Under the pieces are notes generated by a model, which worked only from the letters and a program-made list of their open reading frames with translations, had not been told where the DNA came from and searched no databases. A DNA stretch of 7,776 bases, taken from the IMG/VR virus record IMGVR_UViG_2939152649_000004, positions 1-7,776 of that record. The stretch is one strand, 5' to 3'. This document shows, in pieces, positions 1-7,776 of the stretch. The position numbers and the translations under genes were made by a program. This stretch comes from a virus. Taxonomy: Duplodnaviria; Heunggongvirae; Uroviricota; Caudoviricetes. Position 1 is the stretch's first letter, and each line of letters begins with the position of its first letter.

Positions 1-276
1 TTACCGACTGCGGCCTGAGTTTTTTAAGTGACGTAAAATCGTGTTGAGGCCAACGCCCATAATGCGGGCTGTTGCCCGGCATCCAACGCCATTCATGGCC
101 ATATCAATGATTTTCTGGTGCGTACCGGGTTGAGAAGCGGTGTAAGTGAACTGCAGTTGCCATGTTTTACGGCAGTGAGAGCAGAGATAGCGCTGATGTC
201 CGGCGGTGCTTTTGCCGTTACGCACCACCCCGTCAGTAGCTGAACAGGAGGGACAGCTGATAGAAACAGAAGCCAC
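1..276 (-). CDS. insA: IS1 InsA (transposition regulator, zinc-finger/HTH protein)
   Basis: 91-aa [46 protein letters not shown]...LKNSGRSR, recognised as canonical IS1 InsA. CxxC...CxxC zinc-finger motif is present. Confidence 0.93.
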
Positions 277-308
277 TGGAGCACCTCAAAAACACCATCA
301 TACACTAA

Positions 309-331
309 ATCAGTAAGTTGGCAGCATCACC
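309..331. repeat. IS1 terminal inverted repeat (left end); IS1/flank junction at 331|332
   Basis: Sequence atcagtaagttggcagcatcacc is the reverse complement of the IS1 end GGTGATGCTGCCAACTTACTGAT. Only one IS end is in the window, so no target-site duplication can be assessed. Confidence 0.8.
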
Positions 332-335
332 AGCA

Positions 336-366
336 GTGACAATATAAAATATAGTCTTAATATTAT
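336..366 (+). promoter_or_regulatory. Candidate sigma70-like promoter upstream of the GGDEF ORF, immediately next to the IS1 end
   Basis: gtgaca at 336..341 (5/6 match to TTGACA) followed 17-19 bp later by overlapping AT-rich hexamers aatatt/tattat at 359..366. By-eye call only. Confidence 0.2.
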
Positions 367-388
367 ACAATACTCGCTGAATCGTCAT

Positions 389-1156
389 TTGTCGACGTGG
401 AATATCGTGTACACCAAAATAATATCAGTATTTTGGCTTGTATTACTTATCAGCTCATGCATCAGCATACGTAATTACTCAAAAATATGGTTGTGTATAA
501 TACTTATTTGTATAGTGTCAGTATGCAATAATCTAATTTTATTGTATTTTATTGATAAATCCCATCCTGCATGGTACATGACAAAATTTCTTGAATTGAT
601 ATCAATGATTTATATCATTTCAACACTCATGTATTATGTTTTCAGGAAATTAAATCATGCTAATCATATGGCAATTCATGATCCACTAACGAATACATAC
701 AATAGAAGATACTTTATTGACTCATTGAAGAATATATCAAAACACCATGATTTCTCAGTAATAATGTTAGATATTGACAATTTCAAAAGCATCAATGACA
801 AATGGGGGCATCATATGGGTGATCAAGTCATAGTAATGGTTACCAGAATAATAAAAAAATCCATCAGGAAAGAGGATATATTAGGGCGCTTAGGCGGTGA
901 GGAGTTCGGTATTATCATTAAAGGTAATACTCAAAAGCTCTTGCTATCAATTGCAGAGCGAATCAGAAAAAACATTGAGGAGCAATGCTCGAAAAAATTA
1001 TTATCGCATGGACCTGAGAAAATAACCGTCAGTATTGGTTGTTTTACTTCAAAAGAGAATAATCTCAGTCCATCTGAAATGTTAGTCAATGCCGATAAAG
1101 CGTTATATCAAGCCAAAAGAACCGGAAAGAACAAGGTGATAACTCACTCAAAATAA
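389..1156 (+). CDS. Membrane-anchored GGDEF-domain diguanylate cyclase (predicted active; I-site present); start codon uncertain
   Basis: 255-aa ORF. Three hydrophobic segments in the N-terminal ~85 aa are followed by a GGDEF domain: HDPLTNTYNRRYF, DIDNFKSINDKWGHHMGD, and RKEDILGRLGGEEFGIII, which carries the GGEEF active-site motif with an RxxD motif five residues upstream. The region is visibly AT-rich. The ORF as listed starts at TTG 389; there is no in-frame ATG before codon 63. Confidence 0.85.
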   Translation: MSTWNIVYTKIISVFWLVLLISSCISIRNYSKIWLCIILICIVSVCNNLILLYFIDKSHPAWYMTKFLELISMIYIISTLMYYVFRKLNHANHMAIHDPLTNTYNRRYFIDSLKNISKHHDFSVIMLDIDNFKSINDKWGHHMGDQVIVMVTRIIKKSIRKEDILGRLGGEEFGIIIKGNTQKLLLSIAERIRKNIEEQCSKKLLSHGPEKITVSIGCFTSKENNLSPSEMLVNADKALYQAKRTGKNKVITHSK

Positions 1157-1185
1157 ACACCTTTTTAAAATACAGCCCCAATAAA

Positions 1186-1218
1186 CTGCAGAATATTATC
1201 CCATATAATATCCTGCAG
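1186..1218 (-). terminator. Imperfect inverted repeat/hairpin between the convergent GGDEF and tfa genes; possible terminator for stf-tfa
   Basis: Arms ctgcagaatattat (1186..1199) and ataatatcctgcag (1205..1218) pair at 13 of 14 positions with a 5-nt loop. On the minus strand the hairpin is followed by TTTATTGGGG. It lies 12 nt past the tfa stop. Confidence 0.35.
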
Positions 1219-1229
1219 TTCGTAATGCA

Positions 1230-1814
1230 CTATTCGATAATGGGTCCTGTTGGCCATTCAATATCCGGTGCAGTTGATGTATCAACACGGTTCAGCAATA
1301 CCCGATACTTTTTCCATGCTTCCAGCAACGAGATTTCTTCCTCCGTTGCAATTTCCAGATCTGCAGCATCCTGAAGCGGCGCAATATGCTCACTGGCTAC
1401 CTGCATCAGGCTGTTTTTTGTTTCTTCCGCCTCCCGGATCCGGAACAGTTTTTCTGCTTCCGTATCCTTCACCCAGGCTGTGCCGTTCCACTTCTGATAT
1501 TCCCCTCCCGGCGATAACCAGGTAACATTTTCCGGTAACGGACCGAGTTCAGAAATAAATAACGCGTCGCCGGAAGCCACGTCATAAACCGTTTTACCCC
1601 GATGATTTTCAACGAGATGCCACGATGCCTCATCACTGTTGAAAACAGCCACGAAGCCTGCCGGAATATCTGGCGGTGCAATATCGATACTGTTTGCTGG
1701 CAGACCTGTATGAGGCGGAATATATGCGTCACCTTCACCAATAAATTCATTAGTTCCGGCCAGCAGATTATAAATTTTTATGGTCCGTGGTTGTTCACTC
1801 ATTCTGAATGCCAT
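1230..1814 (-). CDS. tfa: Tail fibre assembly protein Tfa (lambda-like)
   Basis: 194-aa [34 protein letters not shown]..., recognised as lambda Tfa with matching length. Its ATG overlaps the stf stop as TAATG, the arrangement expected for lambda stf-tfa. Confidence 0.93.
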
Positions 1815-3031
1815 TATGCAAGCCTCACAATATAGTTAAATGCGATGTTTTTGACGGTGTTTTCCGCGTTACCAGCAGCGTTAACGGTGATGGTGTGTCC
1901 ATGTGAGCCAATCGCAACCGAGTGCGTATGAGCACCAATACCCACAGTATGTGCGTGTGCACCTGCGCTTGCAGCAGTACCCGATACAGAGTGCGTATGA
2001 GCGCCTGCAGAAGAAGTGTTAACACTGTATTTAGAATAATCAGATGCTCCACTTCCCGGAGCACCACTGGAACCACCTGAAACAAATGTCATCGAATGGG
2101 TATGTGCACCGGCTGAAGCAGCCGTACCGCTAACACTATGGGTATGCGCACCAGTGTTATTCGTGGATTTAGTGCCGTAATCAAACGACGATGTGGTTTT
2201 CGTCCCCAAATCCGTACTGGATGCGCTGGCGCTGTGGGTGTGCGATTTAATGCCGTCCTGTTCCTGAGACAATACGGCCCGACCACTGGCGGGCTTGCCC
2301 TTAATCATCCAGCCACGCATATCAGGGATCACGCCTGACGGATAAGCCGCTGCAAGTTTCGGGTAAGCAGATTTGTCAAAAGTCTGCCCCTGCATCAGGG
2401 CATAACCAGACGGAACGGTATCCGATGGCCACGGGATTGGTGCGCCAGGCGGATAAAACTGCTCTGATGGCGTATAGAGTGAATAAACTGTACCGTCCGT
2501 TAACCCTTCCGGCTTATTAGCAGAATATGCTGGTGACGTATGAATCGTTACGCTGGCATTACTGGTATAATCCCATTGAATATTTACACCAGTCGCATAA
2601 TTTCCGATTGCAACGTAAATATCGTAAGTATCACCAGATGTATTGACCCAGGCAAAATTTGTAAACCCTGCCGATGTGCGCTGCCATAAAGCACCAGTAA
2701 TCCCCTTCGGATTACCATTACCTGCACGCAAAACAAGTTCAGATATACCTGCCTGTTGAGGTGAACCGACGTTATATCCAGCCCCACCAATCAACGTAAT
2801 TGAAACAACAGAACTCGCCTGCGGCATGGTTACCGTTGCTAATTTGAACCAACCAGCACCACCGCTGAATGACATAGTTGTTGAGTTAAGCGTACCAATA
2901 TCTTTCGGTGTCAGTGTTATATCCGCTGAAAGCGCCTTACCATTCACCTTACGGGCAGAAGGTACCCGAAATCCCCTGAAAGCACAGCGGCTGGCTGAGG
3001 AGATAAATAATAAACGGGGAGCTGTATGCAC
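1814..3031 (-). CDS. stf: Side tail fibre protein Stf, C-terminal portion; probably a 5'-truncated remnant
   Basis: C-terminus ...[31 protein letters not shown] is recognised as lambda-type Stf. It contains the tail-fibre motif [17 protein letters not shown] and repeated GAHTHS His motifs. The ORF opens with a GTG and a basic, non-fibre-like ~30-aa leader, the frame closes at 3050..3052, and no tail genes lie upstream. Confidence 0.8.
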
Positions 3032-3217
3032 AAAGCATCTCCTGTTGAGTTAAGAACGAGCATTGAGATGGCACATAGCCTCGCTCAAATTGGAGTCAGG
3101 TTTGTGCCAATACCAGTAGAAACAGACGAAGAATTTCATACGTTAGCCGCATCCCTTTCACAAAAGCTGGAAATGATGGTGGCGAAAGCAGAAGCAGATG
3201 AGAGAGACCAGGTATGA
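3026..3217 (+). CDS. Small exo-xis-region protein, lambda Orf63-like (63 aa)
   Basis: 63-aa [70 protein letters not shown] lies 4 nt upstream of the ATG. Length and position relative to the TraR-like ORF and xis/int match lambda orf63; identity is by recollection, not alignment. Confidence 0.65.
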
Positions 3218-3293
3218 CAACCACTGAATGCATTTTTCTGGCAGCGGGCTTCATATTCTGTGTGCTTATGCTTGCCGACATGGGACTTGTTCA

Positions 3294-3509
3294 ATGACAC
3301 ATCAGCAGGAAAACGCCCTTCGCAGTATTGCCCGTCAGGCTAATTCTGAAATCAAAAAAGCCAGACAGCAGTTTCCGGATAAAAACGTCGATGACATTTG
3401 CCGTAGCGTACTTAAGAAGCACCGCGAAACGGTAACGCTGATGGGATTCACACCGACTCATTTAAGCCTGGCGATCGGCATGTTAAACGGCGTCTTTAAG
3501 GAACGGTGA
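3294..3509 (+). CDS. Small exo-xis-region protein in the position of lambda orf61 (71 aa from ATG 3294)
   Basis: The ORF track gives 3228..3509, but the internal ATG at 3294 overlaps the stop of an upstream micro-ORF (ATGA-type coupling) and yields MTHQQENALRSIARQANSEIKKARQQFPDKNVDD... Same strand and operon as the orf63-like and TraR-like ORFs. Confidence 0.55.
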   Translation: MTHQQENALRSIARQANSEIKKARQQFPDKNVDDICRSVLKKHRETVTLMGFTPTHLSLAIGMLNGVFKER

Positions 3510-3607
3510 ACATGAAAAGCAAAATCATCAGGGAGCTACAGGTTCCTTTTTTATTGTTCGCATTCATCCTCAAGCGTATTAACCAACAATTCAGGGATTA
3601 ATGGAAG

Positions 3608-3829
3608 ATGGCAGACATCATTGATTCAGCATCAGAAATCGAAGAATTACAGCGCAACACAGCAATAAAAATGCGCCGCCTGAACCACCAGGCTATATCT
3701 GCCACTCATTGTTGTGAGTGTGGCGATCCGATAGATGAACGAAGACGCCTGGTCGTTCAGGGTTGTCGGACTTGTGCAAGTTGCCAGGAGGATCTGGAGC
3801 TTATCAGTAAACAGAGAGGTTCGAAGTGA
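3608..3829 (+). CDS. TraR/DksA-family C4 zinc-finger protein (lambda Orf73-like)
   Basis: 73-aa ORF with CCECG...(17 aa)...CRTCASC, i.e. a CxxC-N17-CxxC zinc ribbon at the C-terminus typical of TraR-like proteins. Length matches lambda orf73 and it sits upstream of xis/int on the same strand. Confidence 0.8.
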   Translation: MADIIDSASEIEELQRNTAIKMRRLNHQAISATHCCECGDPIDERRRLVVQGCRTCASCQEDLELISKQRGSK

Positions 3830-3980
3830 GCGAAATTAACTAGAAGCCAAAGATAAAATCATCGCTGAGCAGGAGAAAATCGCTAACGGAGAAAAGACAG
3901 TAAGTCAGTATATGAAAACCGCATGATATCATCAGATAAAAATCGGTCGTAAAGCGAAATATTAATACCAGAACAAACGA

Positions 3981-4006
3981 GTCGAGGTAAATTATATTAC
4001 CTCGAT
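3981..4006 (-). terminator. Hairpin between the convergent TraR-like gene and the membrane-protein gene; candidate terminator
   Basis: Perfect 8-bp stem cgaggtaa/ttacctcg (3983..3990 with 3997..4004) around loop attata, extendable by a t-a pair and a g.t wobble. The minus-strand side downstream is moderately U-rich. It lies about 35 nt past the stop of the 4040..4642 ORF. Confidence 0.35.
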
Positions 4007-4039
4007 AAATTAACTAAAACTTGCCCGCTATATACTATA

Positions 4040-4642
4040 TCATTCAGTATCATCACGCGCGGTCTGTGCATATGTCACTACCGCACCTAATATATTAATT
4101 TTCTTTTCAACATAGATAATATTATCGTACTCATAATTGCCATACGGATAGCAAATGCGAATATTCTCATGTAGATCGGGGTCATCCACCTCAGCTCCAG
4201 AACAACTTTTTGAACTACCGGAAGTATACCGATACGGTGCAACATAAGACGATGTCTCTCCAGGCAAAAAATAAGTTAGTGTCGTAAGGGGTATAATCAG
4301 AAAAAATCCTGCAAATATGCACATCCCTGCATAAACCTTAAGGTATGCTGACAGACTCTTCCAGCCTCTTTGTTTTACTATCCCCTTCTTAACCCAAAAC
4401 AGAGATAATAGAAAAGCTATTCCCATGCTAAACAGAATGTAATAGTGGGATATACTCTGATTAAGAAACGTGACCCTGTAGATATCTGCCCGCCACCAGA
4501 AGAAAAGGAAAATAAAGATCAGCCCTGAAACTGTCATGCAAATCAAATAAGGATACGAATCTTTTTTCATGTTTAGCGCCCATAAAATTTTTCCTGACCC
4601 GGACAAATTTACCATCCATTTTTTGCGCAGAAAATAGCTCAT
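4040..4642 (-). CDS. Hypothetical integral membrane protein (prophage cargo gene; about 3 TM helices plus a ~70-aa C-terminal domain); start uncertain
   Basis: 200-aa ORF with hydrophobic segments LICMTVSGLIFIFLFFWW, YYILFSMGIAFLLSLFWV and MCIFAGFFLIIPLTTLTYFL, then a hydrophilic Cys/Tyr-containing tail (...CSGAEVDDPDLHENIRICYPYGNYEYDNIIYVEKK...). AT-rich and opposite in orientation to the surrounding operon. Alternative starts at codon 10 or codon 25 (MKKDSYPYL, ATG at 4568..4570). Confidence 0.65.
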   Translation of the reverse strand: MSYFLRKKWMVNLSGSGKILWALNMKKDSYPYLICMTVSGLIFIFLFFWWRADIYRVTFLNQSISHYYILFSMGIAFLLSLFWVKKGIVKQRGWKSLSAYLKVYAGMCIFAGFFLIIPLTTLTYFLPGETSSYVAPYRYTSGSSKSCSGAEVDDPDLHENIRICYPYGNYEYDNIIYVEKKINILGAVVTYAQTARDDTE

Positions 4643-4884
4643 TACTTACTGCACAATAATACACAAAATTGCGTAAATTTTTTGCATGGATTTTAGCTCT
4701 TTCAGCCGACATTTAAGGGGTAAATAGCATTTCCTAAAAGCAACTGCACCAACCCAACAGAATGGGCTACCGCTTACGTTGAGAGCAAAAAAGTGTATAG
4801 CAGCAATGAACAGCATCCTCGCACTGACGAGGATTTCTTTTATCTGAACTCGCTACGGCGGGTTTTGTTTTATGGAGATGATAA

Positions 4885-5052
4885 ATGCACTTCCGAGTCA
4901 CAGGTGAATGGAATGGAGAACCATTCAACAGAGTTATCGAAGCCGAGAACATCAGCGACTGCTATGACCACTGGATGCTGTGGGCGCAGATAGCACATGC
5001 AGACGTAACCAATATTCGAATTGAAGAACTGAAAGAACACCAAGCCGCCTGA
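4885..5052 (+). CDS. Small protein upstream of xis (lambda orf55-like, 55 aa)
   Basis: ATG at 4885 preceded by GGAG at 4874..4877; translation MHFRVTGEWNGEPFNRVIEAENISDCYDHWMLWAQIAHADVTNIRIEELKEHQAA. Not in the ORF track because it is under 60 aa. Position and length match the 55-codon ORF next to xis in lambda. Confidence 0.6.
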   Translation: MHFRVTGEWNGEPFNRVIEAENISDCYDHWMLWAQIAHADVTNIRIEELKEHQAA

Positions 5053-5064
5053 TGGCGGTTTTTT
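5044..5064 (+). terminator. GC-rich hairpin plus T6 run overlapping the orf55 stop; intrinsic-terminator-like
   Basis: gccgcc (5044..5049), loop tgat, ggcggt (5054..5059) gives a 6-bp stem including one G.U pair, followed by tttttt. Function not established. Confidence 0.45.
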
Positions 5065-5065
5065 C

Positions 5066-5105
5066 TTGCGTGTAATTGCGGAGACTTTGCGATGTACTTG
5101 ACACT
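5066..5105 (+). promoter_or_regulatory. pI-type int promoter region with cII-binding box TTGC-N6-TTGC
   Basis: TTGC at 5066..5069 and 5076..5079 separated by 6 bp, immediately upstream of the xis ATG at 5092. In lambda the cII-activated pI promoter sits at the xis start with its transcript beginning inside xis. Confidence 0.55.
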
Positions 5106-5310
5106 TCAGGAGTGGAACGCACGCCAGCGACGCCCAAGAAGCCTTGAAACAGTTCGTCGATGGGTACGCGAGTGCAGGATATTCCCTCCTCCGGTAAAGG
5201 ATGGAAGAGAGTATCTGTTCCACGAATCAGCGGTAAAGGTTGACTTAAATCGACCAGTAACAGGTAGCCTTTTGAAGAGGATCAGAAATGGGAAGAAGGC
5301 GAAGTCATGA
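5092..5310 (+). CDS. xis: Excisionase Xis (lambda)
   Basis: 72-aa ORF MYLTLQEWNARQRRPRSLETVRRWVRECRIFPPPVKDGREYLFHESAVKVDLNRP..., recognised as near-identical to lambda Xis. It overlaps the int start as in lambda. Confidence 0.96.
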   Translation: MYLTLQEWNARQRRPRSLETVRRWVRECRIFPPPVKDGREYLFHESAVKVDLNRPVTGSLLKRIRNGKKAKS

Positions 5311-6358
5311 GCGCCGGGATTTACCCCCTAACCTTTATATAAGAAACAATGGATATTACTGCTACAGGGACCCAAGGACGGGTAAAGAGTTTGGATTAGG
5401 CAGAGACAGGCGAATCGCAATCACTGAAGCCATACAGGCCAACATTGAGTTATTTTCAGGACACAAACACAAGCCTCTGACAGCGAGAATCAACAGTGAT
5501 AATTCCGTTACGTTACATTCATGGCTTGATCGCTACGAAAAAATCCTGGCCAGCAGAGAAATCAAGCAGAAGACACTCATAAATTACATGAGCAAAATTA
5601 AAGCAATAAGGAGGGGTCTGCCTGATGCTCCACTTGAAGACATCACCACAAAAGAAATTGCGGCAATGCTCAATGGATACATAGACGAGGGCAAGGCGGC
5701 GTCAGCCAAGTTAATCAGATCAACACTGAGCGATGCATTCCGAGAGGCAATAGCTGAAGGCCATATAACAACAAACCCTGTCGCTGCCACTCGCGCAGCA
5801 AAATCAGAGGTAAGGAGATCAAGACTTACGGCTGACGAATACCTGAAAATTTATCAAGCAGCAGAATCATCACCATGTTGGCTCAGACTTGCAATGGAAC
5901 TGGCTGTTGTTACCGGGCAACGAGTTGGTGATTTATGCGAAATGAAGTGGTCTGATATCGTAGATGGATATCTTTATGTCGAGCAAAGCAAAACAGGCGT
6001 AAAAATTGCCATCCCAACAACATTGCATGTTGATGCTCTCGGGATATCAATGAAGGAAACACTTGATAAATGCAAAGAGATTCTTGGCGGAGAAACCATA
6101 ATTGCATCTACTCGTCGTGAACCGCTTTCATCCGGCACAGTATCAAGGTATTTTATGCGCGCACGAAAAGCATCAGGTCTTTCCTTCGAAGGGGATCCGC
6201 CTACCTTTCACGAGTTGCGCAGTTTGTCTGCAAGACTCTATGAGAAGCAGATAAGCGATAAGTTTGCTCAACATCTTCTCGGGCATAAGTCGGACACCAT
6301 GGCATCACAGTATCGTGATGACAGAGGCAGGGAGTGGGACAAAATTGAAATCAAATAA
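5288..6358 (+). CDS. int: Tyrosine integrase Int (lambda)
   Basis: 356-aa ORF MGRRRSHERRDLPPNLYIRNNGYYCYRDPRTGKEFGLGRDRR...DKIEIK, recognised as near-identical to lambda Int. The catalytic region includes HELRSLSARLY and the tyrosine in ...MASQYRDDRG. Confidence 0.97.
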   Translation: MGRRRSHERRDLPPNLYIRNNGYYCYRDPRTGKEFGLGRDRRIAITEAIQANIELFSGHKHKPLTARINSDNSVTLHSWLDRYEKILASREIKQKTLINYMSKIKAIRRGLPDAPLEDITTKEIAAMLNGYIDEGKAASAKLIRSTLSDAFREAIAEGHITTNPVAATRAAKSEVRRSRLTADEYLKIYQAAESSPCWLRLAMELAVVTGQRVGDLCEMKWSDIVDGYLYVEQSKTGVKIAIPTTLHVDALGISMKETLDKCKEILGGETIIASTRREPLSSGTVSRYFMRARKASGLSFEGDPPTFHELRSLSARLYEKQISDKFAQHLLGHKSDTMASQYRDDRGREWDKIEIK

Positions 6359-6448
6359 TGATTTTATTTTGACTGATAGTGACCTGTTCGTTGCAACAAA
6401 TTGATAAGCAATGCTTTTTTATAATGCCAACTTAGTATAAAAAAGCAG
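6355..6448 (-). other. attL prophage-host junction: lambda P' arm (Int arm-type sites P'1-P'3, IHF H' site) plus the 15-bp att core
   Basis: Reverse complement reads GCCTGCTTTTTTATACTAAGTTGGCATTATAAAAAAGCATTGCTTATCAATTTGTTGCAACGAACAGGTCACTATCAGTCAAAATAAAATCATTA. Core GCTTTTTTATACTAA is at 6432..6446; arm-type sites are at 6355..6385; IHF-like TATCAATTTGTTG is near 6393..6407. Bacterial B-arm sequence follows the core. Confidence 0.88.
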
Positions 6449-6492
6449 GCTTCAACGGATTCATTTTTCTATTTCATAGCCCGGAGCAACCT

Positions 6493-7776
6493 GTGAACAC
6501 ATTTTCAGTTTCCCGTCTGGCGCTGGCATTGGCTTTTGGCGTGACGCTGACCGCCTGTAGCTCAACCCCGCCCGATCAACGTCCTTCTGATCAAACCGCG
6601 CCTGGTACCTCTTCTCGCCCGATTCTGTCGGCAAAAGAAGCGCAGAATTTCGATGCTCAACACTATTTTGCATCCCTGACACCAGGTGCTGCAGCGTGGA
6701 ATCCTTCCCCGATTACCCTGCCTGCGCAACCTGACTTTGTTGTCGGCCCGGCGGGCACTCAAGGTGTAACGCATACCACGATTCAGGCGGCGGTAGATGC
6801 GGCAATTATCAAGCGTACCAACAAGCGCCAGTATATTGCCGTGATGCCTGGTGAGTATCAGGGAACGGTATATGTCCCTGCCGCTCCGGGTGGAATTACT
6901 CTGTACGGTACAGGTGAAAAACCGATTGATGTGAAGATTGGGCTTTCCCTTGATGGTGGCATGAGCCCTGCCGACTGGCGTCACGACGTCAACCCGCGCG
7001 GCAAATATATGCCAGGTAAACCAGCGTGGTATATGTACGATAGCTGCCAGAGCAAACGCAGCGACAGTATCGGTGTTCTCTGCTCTGCGGTCTTCTGGTC
7101 ACAAAACAATGGCCTGCAACTGCAAAATCTGACCATCGAAAACACGCTGGGCGATAGCGTAGATGCAGGTAACCATCCGGCGGTGGCACTGCGTACTGAT
7201 GGTGACCAGGTACAGATTAACAACGTTAACATTCTCGGTCGTCAGAACACCTTCTTTGTCACCAACAGCGGTGTGCAGAACCGTCTGGAAACGAATCGTC
7301 AGCCGCGTACGCTGGTGACCAACAGCTACATTGAAGGGGATGTGGATATCGTTTCTGGTCGCGGCGCAGTGGTGTTCGATAACACCGAATTCCGCGTGGT
7401 GAACTCACGTACTCAGCAAGAAGCGTATGTGTTTGCACCGGCTACGCTGTCCAACATTTACTACGGTTTCCTCGCCGTAAACAGCCGTTTCAATGCTTTC
7501 GGTGATGGTGTGGCGCAACTGGGCCGCTCGCTGGATGTTGATGCCAATACCAACGGTCAGGTGGTGATCCGTGATAGCGCCATCAACGAAGGTTTTAACA
7601 CGGCTAAACCGTGGGCCGATGCGGTGATCTCTAATCGTCCGTTTGCGGGTAATACCGGCAGCGTAGATGATAACGACGAAATACAGCGCAATCTGAATGA
7701 CACTAACTACAACCGCATGTGGGAATACAATAACCGCGGCGTGGGTAGTAAAGTGGTTGCAGAGGCGAAGAAGTAA
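6493..7776 (+). CDS. ybhC: Host outer-membrane lipoprotein YbhC (pectinesterase-like family, putative acyl-CoA thioesterase)
   Basis: 427-aa ORF from a GTG start with GGAG 6 nt upstream. N-terminus MNTFSVSRLALALAFGVTLTAC carries a lipobox (LTAC). ybhC is the gene flanking att-lambda in E. coli; the complete ORF ends with TAA at 7774..7776. Confidence 0.9.
   Translation: MNTFSVSRLALALAFGVTLTACSSTPPDQRPSDQTAPGTSSRPILSAKEAQNFDAQHYFASLTPGAAAWNPSPITLPAQPDFVVGPAGTQGVTHTTIQAAVDAAIIKRTNKRQYIAVMPGEYQGTVYVPAAPGGITLYGTGEKPIDVKIGLSLDGGMSPADWRHDVNPRGKYMPGKPAWYMYDSCQSKRSDSIGVLCSAVFWSQNNGLQLQNLTIENTLGDSVDAGNHPAVALRTDGDQVQINNVNILGRQNTFFVTNSGVQNRLETNRQPRTLVTNSYIEGDVDIVSGRGAVVFDNTEFRVVNSRTQQEAYVFAPATLSNIYYGFLAVNSRFNAFGDGVAQLGRSLDVDANTNGQVVIRDSAINEGFNTAKPWADAVISNRPFAGNTGSVDDNDEIQRNLNDTNYNRMWEYNNRGVGSKVVAEAKK

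Follow-up and report, generated by a model that had tools for sequence, protein, structure and literature searches.

The locus examined here encodes Orf73 of phage lambda, which was studied by Gopalkrishnan et al. in 2022 (PMC9239242) with the same protein sequence as the product described below. The purified lambda protein competes with DksA for E. coli RNA polymerase, where it occupies the DksA site. Its IC50 for inhibition of rrnB P1 is ~50 nM, a value equal to that of TraR and reached with no need for ppGpp (PMC9239242). A ribosomal-protein promoter is also inhibited, and a dksA null strain is complemented by lambda Orf73 on minimal medium (PMC9239242). Expression of Orf73 from pL of an engineered defective prophage lowered 16S precursor and rpsT mRNA, slowed growth and reduced plating efficiency by ~10^4-fold (PMC9239242). 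Phage yield after induction was 3-4 fold higher with Orf73, and the gain was abolished by D3A+D6A (PMC9239242). Activation of thrABC, argI and rpoH P3 by the lambda protein was weak if any, which the authors tentatively tied to its two extra cysteines (PMC9239242).

The same study defined the DxxDxA motif and reported that R48/R49 of TraR contact the rim helices and beta' Si3 (PMC9239242). The roles of this arginine pair and of a conserved acidic residue in the C-terminal helix have been described (PMC9239242, PMC8614690), and a published AlphaFold model of lambda Orf73 has a pLDDT of 93 (PMC8614690). As known from experiments with this sequence, Orf73 occupies the secondary channel of RNA polymerase at the DksA site, with its N-terminal helix pointing DxxDxA at the active site, the C4 zinc ribbon forming the globular domain and a C-terminal helix following. 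Without ppGpp, it blocks rRNA and ribosomal-protein promoters, leading to slower host growth and higher phage yield. The live phage makes Orf73 from pL with N antitermination.

The window, by which we mean the whole stretch of 7,776 nucleotides that was analysed, contains a frame at 3608-3829 that runs from an ATG start to a TGA stop and encodes a 73 aa product, MADIIDSASEIEELQRNTAIKMRRLNHQAISATHCCECGDPIDERRRLVVQGCRTCASCQEDLELISKQRGSK. A regular-expression search of the translation placed the zinc-ribbon pattern C-x2-C-x17-C-x2-C at residues 35-59 (C35, C38, C56, C59) and also found two extra cysteines, C36 and C53. Position, length and CxxC-N17-CxxC spacing are thus as given in a preliminary description of this DNA, which had proposed a TraR-type zinc-ribbon protein. 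That proposal was borne out and can be sharpened, as the product is identical to Orf73 in the Lambda imm21 record at 73/73 residues (100%). The copy in phage 434 shows 99% amino acid identity to the window product, the sole substitution being V50A. At the nucleotide level, only two differences from lambda were found, both synonymous (codon 11, ATC/ATA; codon 64, GAG/GAA).

Family searches gave the same answer, with matches well beyond what chance would produce. The product matched Pfam PF01258 (zf-dskA_traR) with 34.8 bits and E=1.6e-8, the curated gathering cut-off of this family being 24.9 bits, and residues 1-71 matched PHROG 54, 'DksA-like zinc-finger protein', with E=7.8e-25. Among PDB sequences, chains 5w1s and 6n57 of F-plasmid TraR matched best, the former over residues 1-64. 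The RefSeq entry, WP_000763367.1, is named 'TraR/DksA family transcriptional regulator'. An exact-sequence look-up, which recovers identical proteins only, located the same protein in lambda/DE3-type prophages carrying RexA/RexB/Ea22/Ea8.5; in the assembly index it is listed in over 21,000 blocks. Moreover, DNA resembling orf73 is present in 3315 of 5426 complete E. coli genomes (~61%), frequently in several copies. By identity and synteny, the frame is phage lambda orf73, and by all sequence criteria tested its product is a member of the TraR family.

Next to these matches, the residues singled out as important in PMC9239242 are in place. The preliminary description had named loss of the acidic tip residues or of the zinc ligands as the observation that would speak against it; in the alignment to F TraR, D3, D6, A8, C35, C38, C56 and C59 are all present and invariant. 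Q60 and E64 of the C-terminal helix are also invariant. The records of 434 and Lambda imm21 both carry an annotated ribosome-binding site at the place equivalent to the one listed in Table 1. A single-sequence AF2 model (mean pLDDT 56, pTM 0.28) predicted helices at residues 5-33 and 56-70 with low confidence. They flank a non-helical zinc-ribbon segment, an arrangement that agrees with the TraR layout and is too weak to use.

Table 1. Features of the window, in order of position
Feature	Position	Strand	Basis
IS1 end	1-331		ORFs, Pfam, locus comparison
Prophage-borne GGDEF diguanylate cyclase gene, IS1-interrupted	332/389-1156	+	ORFs, Pfam, locus comparison
Tail-fibre assembly gene tfa, intact	1230-1814	-	Pfam Caudo_TAP, Collar, Phage_fiber for tfa/stf region; 100% identity to S43
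Side tail-fibre gene stf, C-terminal part, ~380 codons	1814-~2962	-	100% identity to S43
Deletion junction, 7-bp microhomology TACCCGA	2963-2969		Locus identity break points, base-by-base view
orf60a 3' remnant (DUF1317), last ~30 codons	2963-3053	+	Transferred from related locus CDS 1409-1591; lambda/434 alignment
orf63 (DUF1382), intact	3026-3217	+	Pfam PF07131 E=3e-31; annotated in related locus and phage 434
orf61-region ORF, 71 aa per RefSeq; 93 aa from upstream ATG at 3228	3294-3509	+	phrog_303
Predicted promoter 'p1', overlapping t2	-35 TCATCA 3525-3530; -10 region 3549-3557	+	Published prediction, position check
Terminator-like hairpin and U-run, published prediction 't2', between orf61 and orf73	3530-3557	+	Terminator scan
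Ribosome-binding region: AGGGA at -15 to -11, GGAAG at -5 to -1	3593-3607	+	Read from sequence
orf73 coding sequence	3608-3829	+	ORF list, translation, protein alignment, Pfam, RefSeq
DxxDxA tip motif DIIDSA, codons 3-8, N-terminal helix	3614-3631	+	D3, D6, A8 invariant versus F TraR
C4 zinc ribbon CxxC-N17-CxxC, codons 35-59	3710-3784	+	C35, C38, C56, C59 invariant versus TraR
R46-R47 codons, equivalents of TraR R48/R49	3743-3748	+	Invariant columns in TraR alignment
200-aa predicted membrane protein	4040-4642	-	Phage 434 'putative membrane protein'; phrog_1416, unknown function
orf55, 55 aa, intact	4885-5052	+	ORF list; phrog_676
xis (5092-5310) and int (5288-6358, 356 aa), lambda type, intact	5092-6358	+	ORF list; annotations
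att core GCTTTTTTATACTAA (attL)	6432-6446	-	Exact match, 0 expected by chance

The finding itself is already known, as the protein is named in RefSeq and the mechanism of the identical protein was published in 2022. The in vitro, reporter and growth tests suggested in the preliminary description are likewise in the literature for this protein (PMC9239242). Its proposal that the product mimics the effects of DksA and ppGpp holds for the inhibitory arm and not for the activation of amino-acid promoters, given the weak if any response of thrABC, argI and rpoH P3 (PMC9239242).

The surroundings of orf73 place it in a lambdoid element. The gene order orf60a'-orf63-orf61-orf73 ... orf55-xis-int-attL-ybhC is the lambda exo-xis order at the lambda attachment site, window 2963-3841 aligns collinearly with lambda and 434, and the annotated host gene ybhC begins at 6493, after attL. 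This segment is the exo-xis part of a lambdoid leftward early operon, integrated at the lambda attachment site. Within it, the orf61-region frame has 93 aa (71 aa per RefSeq) in the window, in phage 434 and in wild prophages. The Lambda imm21 record carries one extra A in an A-run near window 3373, which causes a frameshift and a 51-aa product, and the 'orf61' of that lambda record may be a shortened version of a conserved gene that is longer elsewhere (phrog_303).

Downstream of orf73, the predicted 200-aa membrane protein takes the place of lambda ea22/ea8.5, as it does in phage 434 and many prophages. No Pfam match was found for this protein, and its phrog_1416 match is confined to the C-terminal 88 residues. 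A terminator-like palindrome at 3982-4005 follows this reverse-strand gene, which is possibly an independently transcribed moron or exclusion gene. Further along, orf55 encodes a protein whose lambda counterpart has been likened in a modelling paper to T7 Gp2, an RNA polymerase inhibitor (PMC8614690). If the modelled likeness holds, the remnant may keep two small proteins directed at RNA polymerase, Orf73 and Orf55.

At the other end of the window, the diguanylate cyclase gene is cut by IS1. In strains S43 and 2015-01-2097, this MASE4-GGDEF gene is full length at 443 aa; in the window, ~255 codons from its 3' end remain, with the GGDEF domain complete, and a promoter-like site (336-364) lies directly at the IS1 boundary. 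The tail-fibre genes that follow bear on the suggestion that the element had lost all replication and structural genes. The loss of replication genes holds for the window, and that of structural genes does not, as tfa is intact and the C-terminal part of stf is present.

We then compared both sides of the point where the tail-fibre gene fragment meets the ~30-codon 3' end of orf60a. A lambdoid prophage in E. coli S43 matches window 332-2969 with its right end at 100% identity, and the att-lambda remnant of strain MB06022 matches window 2963-7776 at 99.96%. Missing between stf and orf60a are the 5' part of stf, J...A (tail, head), lysis, Q, nin, P, O, cro, cI, N, pL, gam, bet and exo. We read the join as a deletion, because the flanks continue in S43 on the tail-fibre side and in other prophages on the exo/bet/gam side, and because a 7-bp microhomology lies at the junction. 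An internal deletion on the scale of ~35 kb has taken out pL, N and cI together with every gene for replication, lysis, head and tail shaft, and has fused the oppositely oriented tail-fibre fragment to the tail of orf60a. That the join is a natural gene order was considered and rejected, since both flanks run collinearly into fuller prophage copies.

The whole window, taken as one place, is absent from all 5426 complete E. coli genomes, and the junction is spanned in only one of them, strain EC20-4B-2, at about 94-95% identity. The 44-nt junction sequence had no exact match in the species-representative genome collection. The EC20-4B-2 remnant lies at a different site, with intD adjoining tRNA-Arg (the DLP12 position), and encodes a TraR homologue 86% identical to that of the window. 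It has the same tail-fibre breakpoint as the window (...GAAGGTA; 6150-6450 of the compared locus) plus 19 bases of orf60a. From these sequences, the window junction looks like the EC20-4B-2 junction plus a 19-bp secondary deletion, which suggests that an old deletion may have been transferred between resident lambdoid prophages by recombination.

Related remnants at att-lambda are broken at other points. In MB06022, the break lies ~16 bp further into orf60a, beside IS3 and group II intron debris (locus 5498-6091). In the CP010160 remnant, IS5 abuts at the equivalent of window 3462, 146 bp upstream of an intact orf73 (locus 8728-10222). A third type, listed for five genomes, passes from a J fragment to orf55'-xis-int and has lost orf73 (locus 8441-8896). 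Thus, orf73 is intact in at least three independently truncated remnants (the window, MB06022 and CP010160). The deletion end points at att-lambda look arbitrary, since the sister remnants either lack orf73 or keep it behind IS5. Together they form a natural deletion series that can be used for testing preferential retention of orf73.

With the identity of the gene settled, its transcription in the remnant was considered. Homology to the lambda early-left region starts only at 2963, inside orf60a, and upstream of that point lies the tail-fibre gene on the opposite strand. The natural promoter pL, nutL and the antiterminator N are all absent from the orf73 locus, and pL/N transcription is lost with them. 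A consensus promoter scan, which is crude and misses non-canonical promoters, found no sigma-70-like consensus site on the + strand from 1836 to orf73. Over positions 1-5300 the scan returned 15 such sites versus 12.7 expected from shuffled sequence, that is, chance level.

Between orf61 and orf73, Bloch et al. 2014 predicted the terminator t2 and, with BPROM, the promoter p1 (PMC4195576). The t2 hairpin, 60 bp upstream of the orf73 start, is conserved in both lambda and 434. In lambda, the reduced level of orf73/ea22/ea8.5 mRNA beyond t2 has been ascribed to this terminator (PMC4195576), and in the remnant, without N, readthrough from upstream would tend to end there. A C>T change relative to lambda at 3543 turns a G-C pair of the hairpin into G-U, and the fold energy is -7.8 kcal/mol in the window versus -10.2 in lambda and 434; the weaker hairpin would block readthrough less well than lambda t2. 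A second change, A>G at 3556, alters the -10 string published for p1; this string reads TTTTATTGT in the window versus TTTTATTAT as published, and phage 434 has the same G. Compared with the consensus, p1 matches at 3/6 positions in the -35 and at 4/6 in the best-spaced -10 (TTTTAT), which lacks the key A at position 2, and it stays below the scan criteria. In phage Phi24B, H2O2 treatment raised the mRNA of orf73 and ea22 beyond that of the remaining region, which is compatible with a promoter of their own (PMC4195576).

Taken together, the data are probably best explained as a whole by lambda orf73, with its known mechanism, surviving in a remnant as a silent or near-silent passenger. Judged from the DNA upstream, the remnant gene would be transcriptionally silent or nearly so, and it is most likely an unexpressed passenger. 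An intact orf73 is expected even without selection, because related prophages and remnants of other strains match this one at ~99-100% identity. Furthermore, as strong expression is severely deleterious, little or no expression best explains an intact copy in a remnant that lacks the repressor. The gene would have survived through its position close to int and because too little time has passed for decay, rather than through selection by the host.

The preliminary description had drawn the opposite conclusion, that retention of the gene suggests possible continued modulation of host transcription. We found no support for this claim: pL and N are deleted, no consensus promoter was detected upstream, a terminator-like hairpin precedes the gene, the copy is nearly identical to those of other strains, and other remnants at the site have lost orf73. 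A rival reading is that orf73 has become a domesticated regulator, with weak or stress-dependent expression from a promoter of its own (p1 or one near the junction), and is kept by selection as a ppGpp-independent brake on ribosome synthesis. We consider this unlikely, although several observations can be cited for it. A promoter is predicted upstream and its -35, TCATCA (3525-3530), is retained; an H2O2-specific excess of orf73/ea22 mRNA occurs in Phi24B (PMC4195576); and little protein would be required at an IC50 of ~50 nM (PMC9239242). The G-C to G-U change weakens the t2 hairpin, and the intact gene in three differently truncated remnants is readable as retention. However, p1 is a software prediction with a poor match to the consensus that fails the scan, and the window departs from lambda within its published -10 string. 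In addition, pL-driven expression is strongly deleterious, with ~10^4-fold lower plating (PMC9239242), other remnants have lost the gene with no apparent consequence, and near-identity to the copies of other strains means that intactness is no signal of selection. In a literature search, we came across no TraR-type protein described as a domesticated regulator working from a cryptic prophage. The more specific proposal, in which p1, overlapping the weakened t2, would drive transcription, for example under oxidative stress, and the host would retain the gene as a brake on ribosome synthesis, is likewise improbable.

Were the remnant gene expressed, a cryptic prophage would be supplying a regulator resembling the stringent response that bypasses ppGpp, and a growth-arrest factor of a phage would have been domesticated from a dead prophage. 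This would be relevant to studies of growth-rate control and of prophage domestication, and nothing that we found points there. Host action of the retained gene is the only aspect that goes beyond the existing literature, and the evidence leans against it. As it is, the practical value lies in a clear name for the gene, which can be annotated as lambda Orf73 within a lambdoid remnant at att-lambda.

A different objection concerns the protein rather than the copy, namely that the main activity of Orf73 is not control of initiation through RNA polymerase and is, for instance, to block directly the start of host replication or the cell cycle. Earlier work (ref. 21 of PMC9239242) linked orf73 and adjacent genes to inhibition of the start of host replication, a replication or cell-cycle block was earlier ascribed to the orf73-ea22-ea8.5-orf55 cluster, and deletion studies described orf73 as pro-lysogenic and saw the opposite effect on phage yield (PMC8614690). 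We regard this view as very improbable, as the biochemistry shows that Orf73 binds RNA polymerase and inhibits particular promoters, 10-40 fold more protein is needed at the dnaA promoters than at rrnB P1, and dnaA mRNA was barely altered at prophage-level expression (PMC9239242). The replication effects are explicable as secondary to changes in rRNA transcription and supercoiling (PMC9239242), and ea22 and ea8.5 are absent from the window remnant.

Finally, that a frame so short, within a degraded element, arose by chance or is decaying with no functional product was already refuted by the sequence comparisons and has next to no probability, since the frame is complete and its product matches a protein of demonstrated activity at 100% identity, both of its nucleotide changes versus lambda are synonymous, three libraries give strong family matches, and lambda ribosome profiling reportedly confirms the exo-xis ORFs as expressed genes (PMC8614690).

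Among the known systems for comparison is the chromosomal E. coli protein YbiI (PDB 2KGO). It is a small, chromosomally fixed member of the TraR/DksA family that is not phage-borne, and only its zinc ribbon aligns with the product (residues 29-65, E=1e-4). E. coli DksA belongs to the same C4 zinc-finger family in Pfam as Orf73 and binds RNA polymerase at the same site. It is about twice as long as Orf73 (151 aa). DksA carries its acidic tip on a coiled coil, whereas proteins of the TraR type use a single N-terminal helix (PMC8614690), and DksA requires ppGpp for full activity whereas they do not (PMC9239242). The features of DksA proper, a long coiled coil and ppGpp dependence, are lacking in the 73-aa window product, which has its acidic motif at residues 3-8 of a single helix; it is therefore not a DksA orthologue.

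Other members of the family come from phages. P2 Orf82, VHML Orf8, VP882 Orf61 and X. bovienii Gp34 all bind RNA polymerase and inhibit rrnB P1 (PMC9239242). P2 Orf82 and other phage TraR homologues need 5-16 fold more protein than Orf73 on the E. coli enzyme, and DxxDxA is not fully conserved in P2 Orf82 and Gp34 (PMC9239242).

F-plasmid TraR, known from PDB 5W1S, 6N57 and related cryo-EM complexes with RNA polymerase, is also 73 aa long, aligns end to end with Orf73 and has the same architecture. The two proteins share the N-terminal DxxDxA, the CxxC-N17-CxxC pattern, the RR pair and the C-terminal helix, and both inhibit rrnB P1 with an IC50 of ~50 nM free of ppGpp (PMC9239242). In contrast, their identity is only 32%, the two extra cysteines belong to Orf73, and TraR activates thrABC, argI and rpoH P3 where Orf73 does so weakly if at all (PMC9239242). 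TraR is borne on a plasmid in the tra operon, and Orf73 comes from a phage early-left operon.

The closest system is lambda itself, with which the window shares, in addition to the 73/73 identical protein, the upstream neighbours orf60a, orf63 and the orf61 region, the int-xis-orf55 module and the att site. The window differs from lambda in having lost the pL, nutL and N transcription unit, and in adjoining a 434-type reverse-strand membrane-protein gene where lambda has ea22/ea8.5. The remaining differences are two synonymous changes and two single bases, of which one lies in the t2 hairpin and the other within the -10 string predicted for p1.
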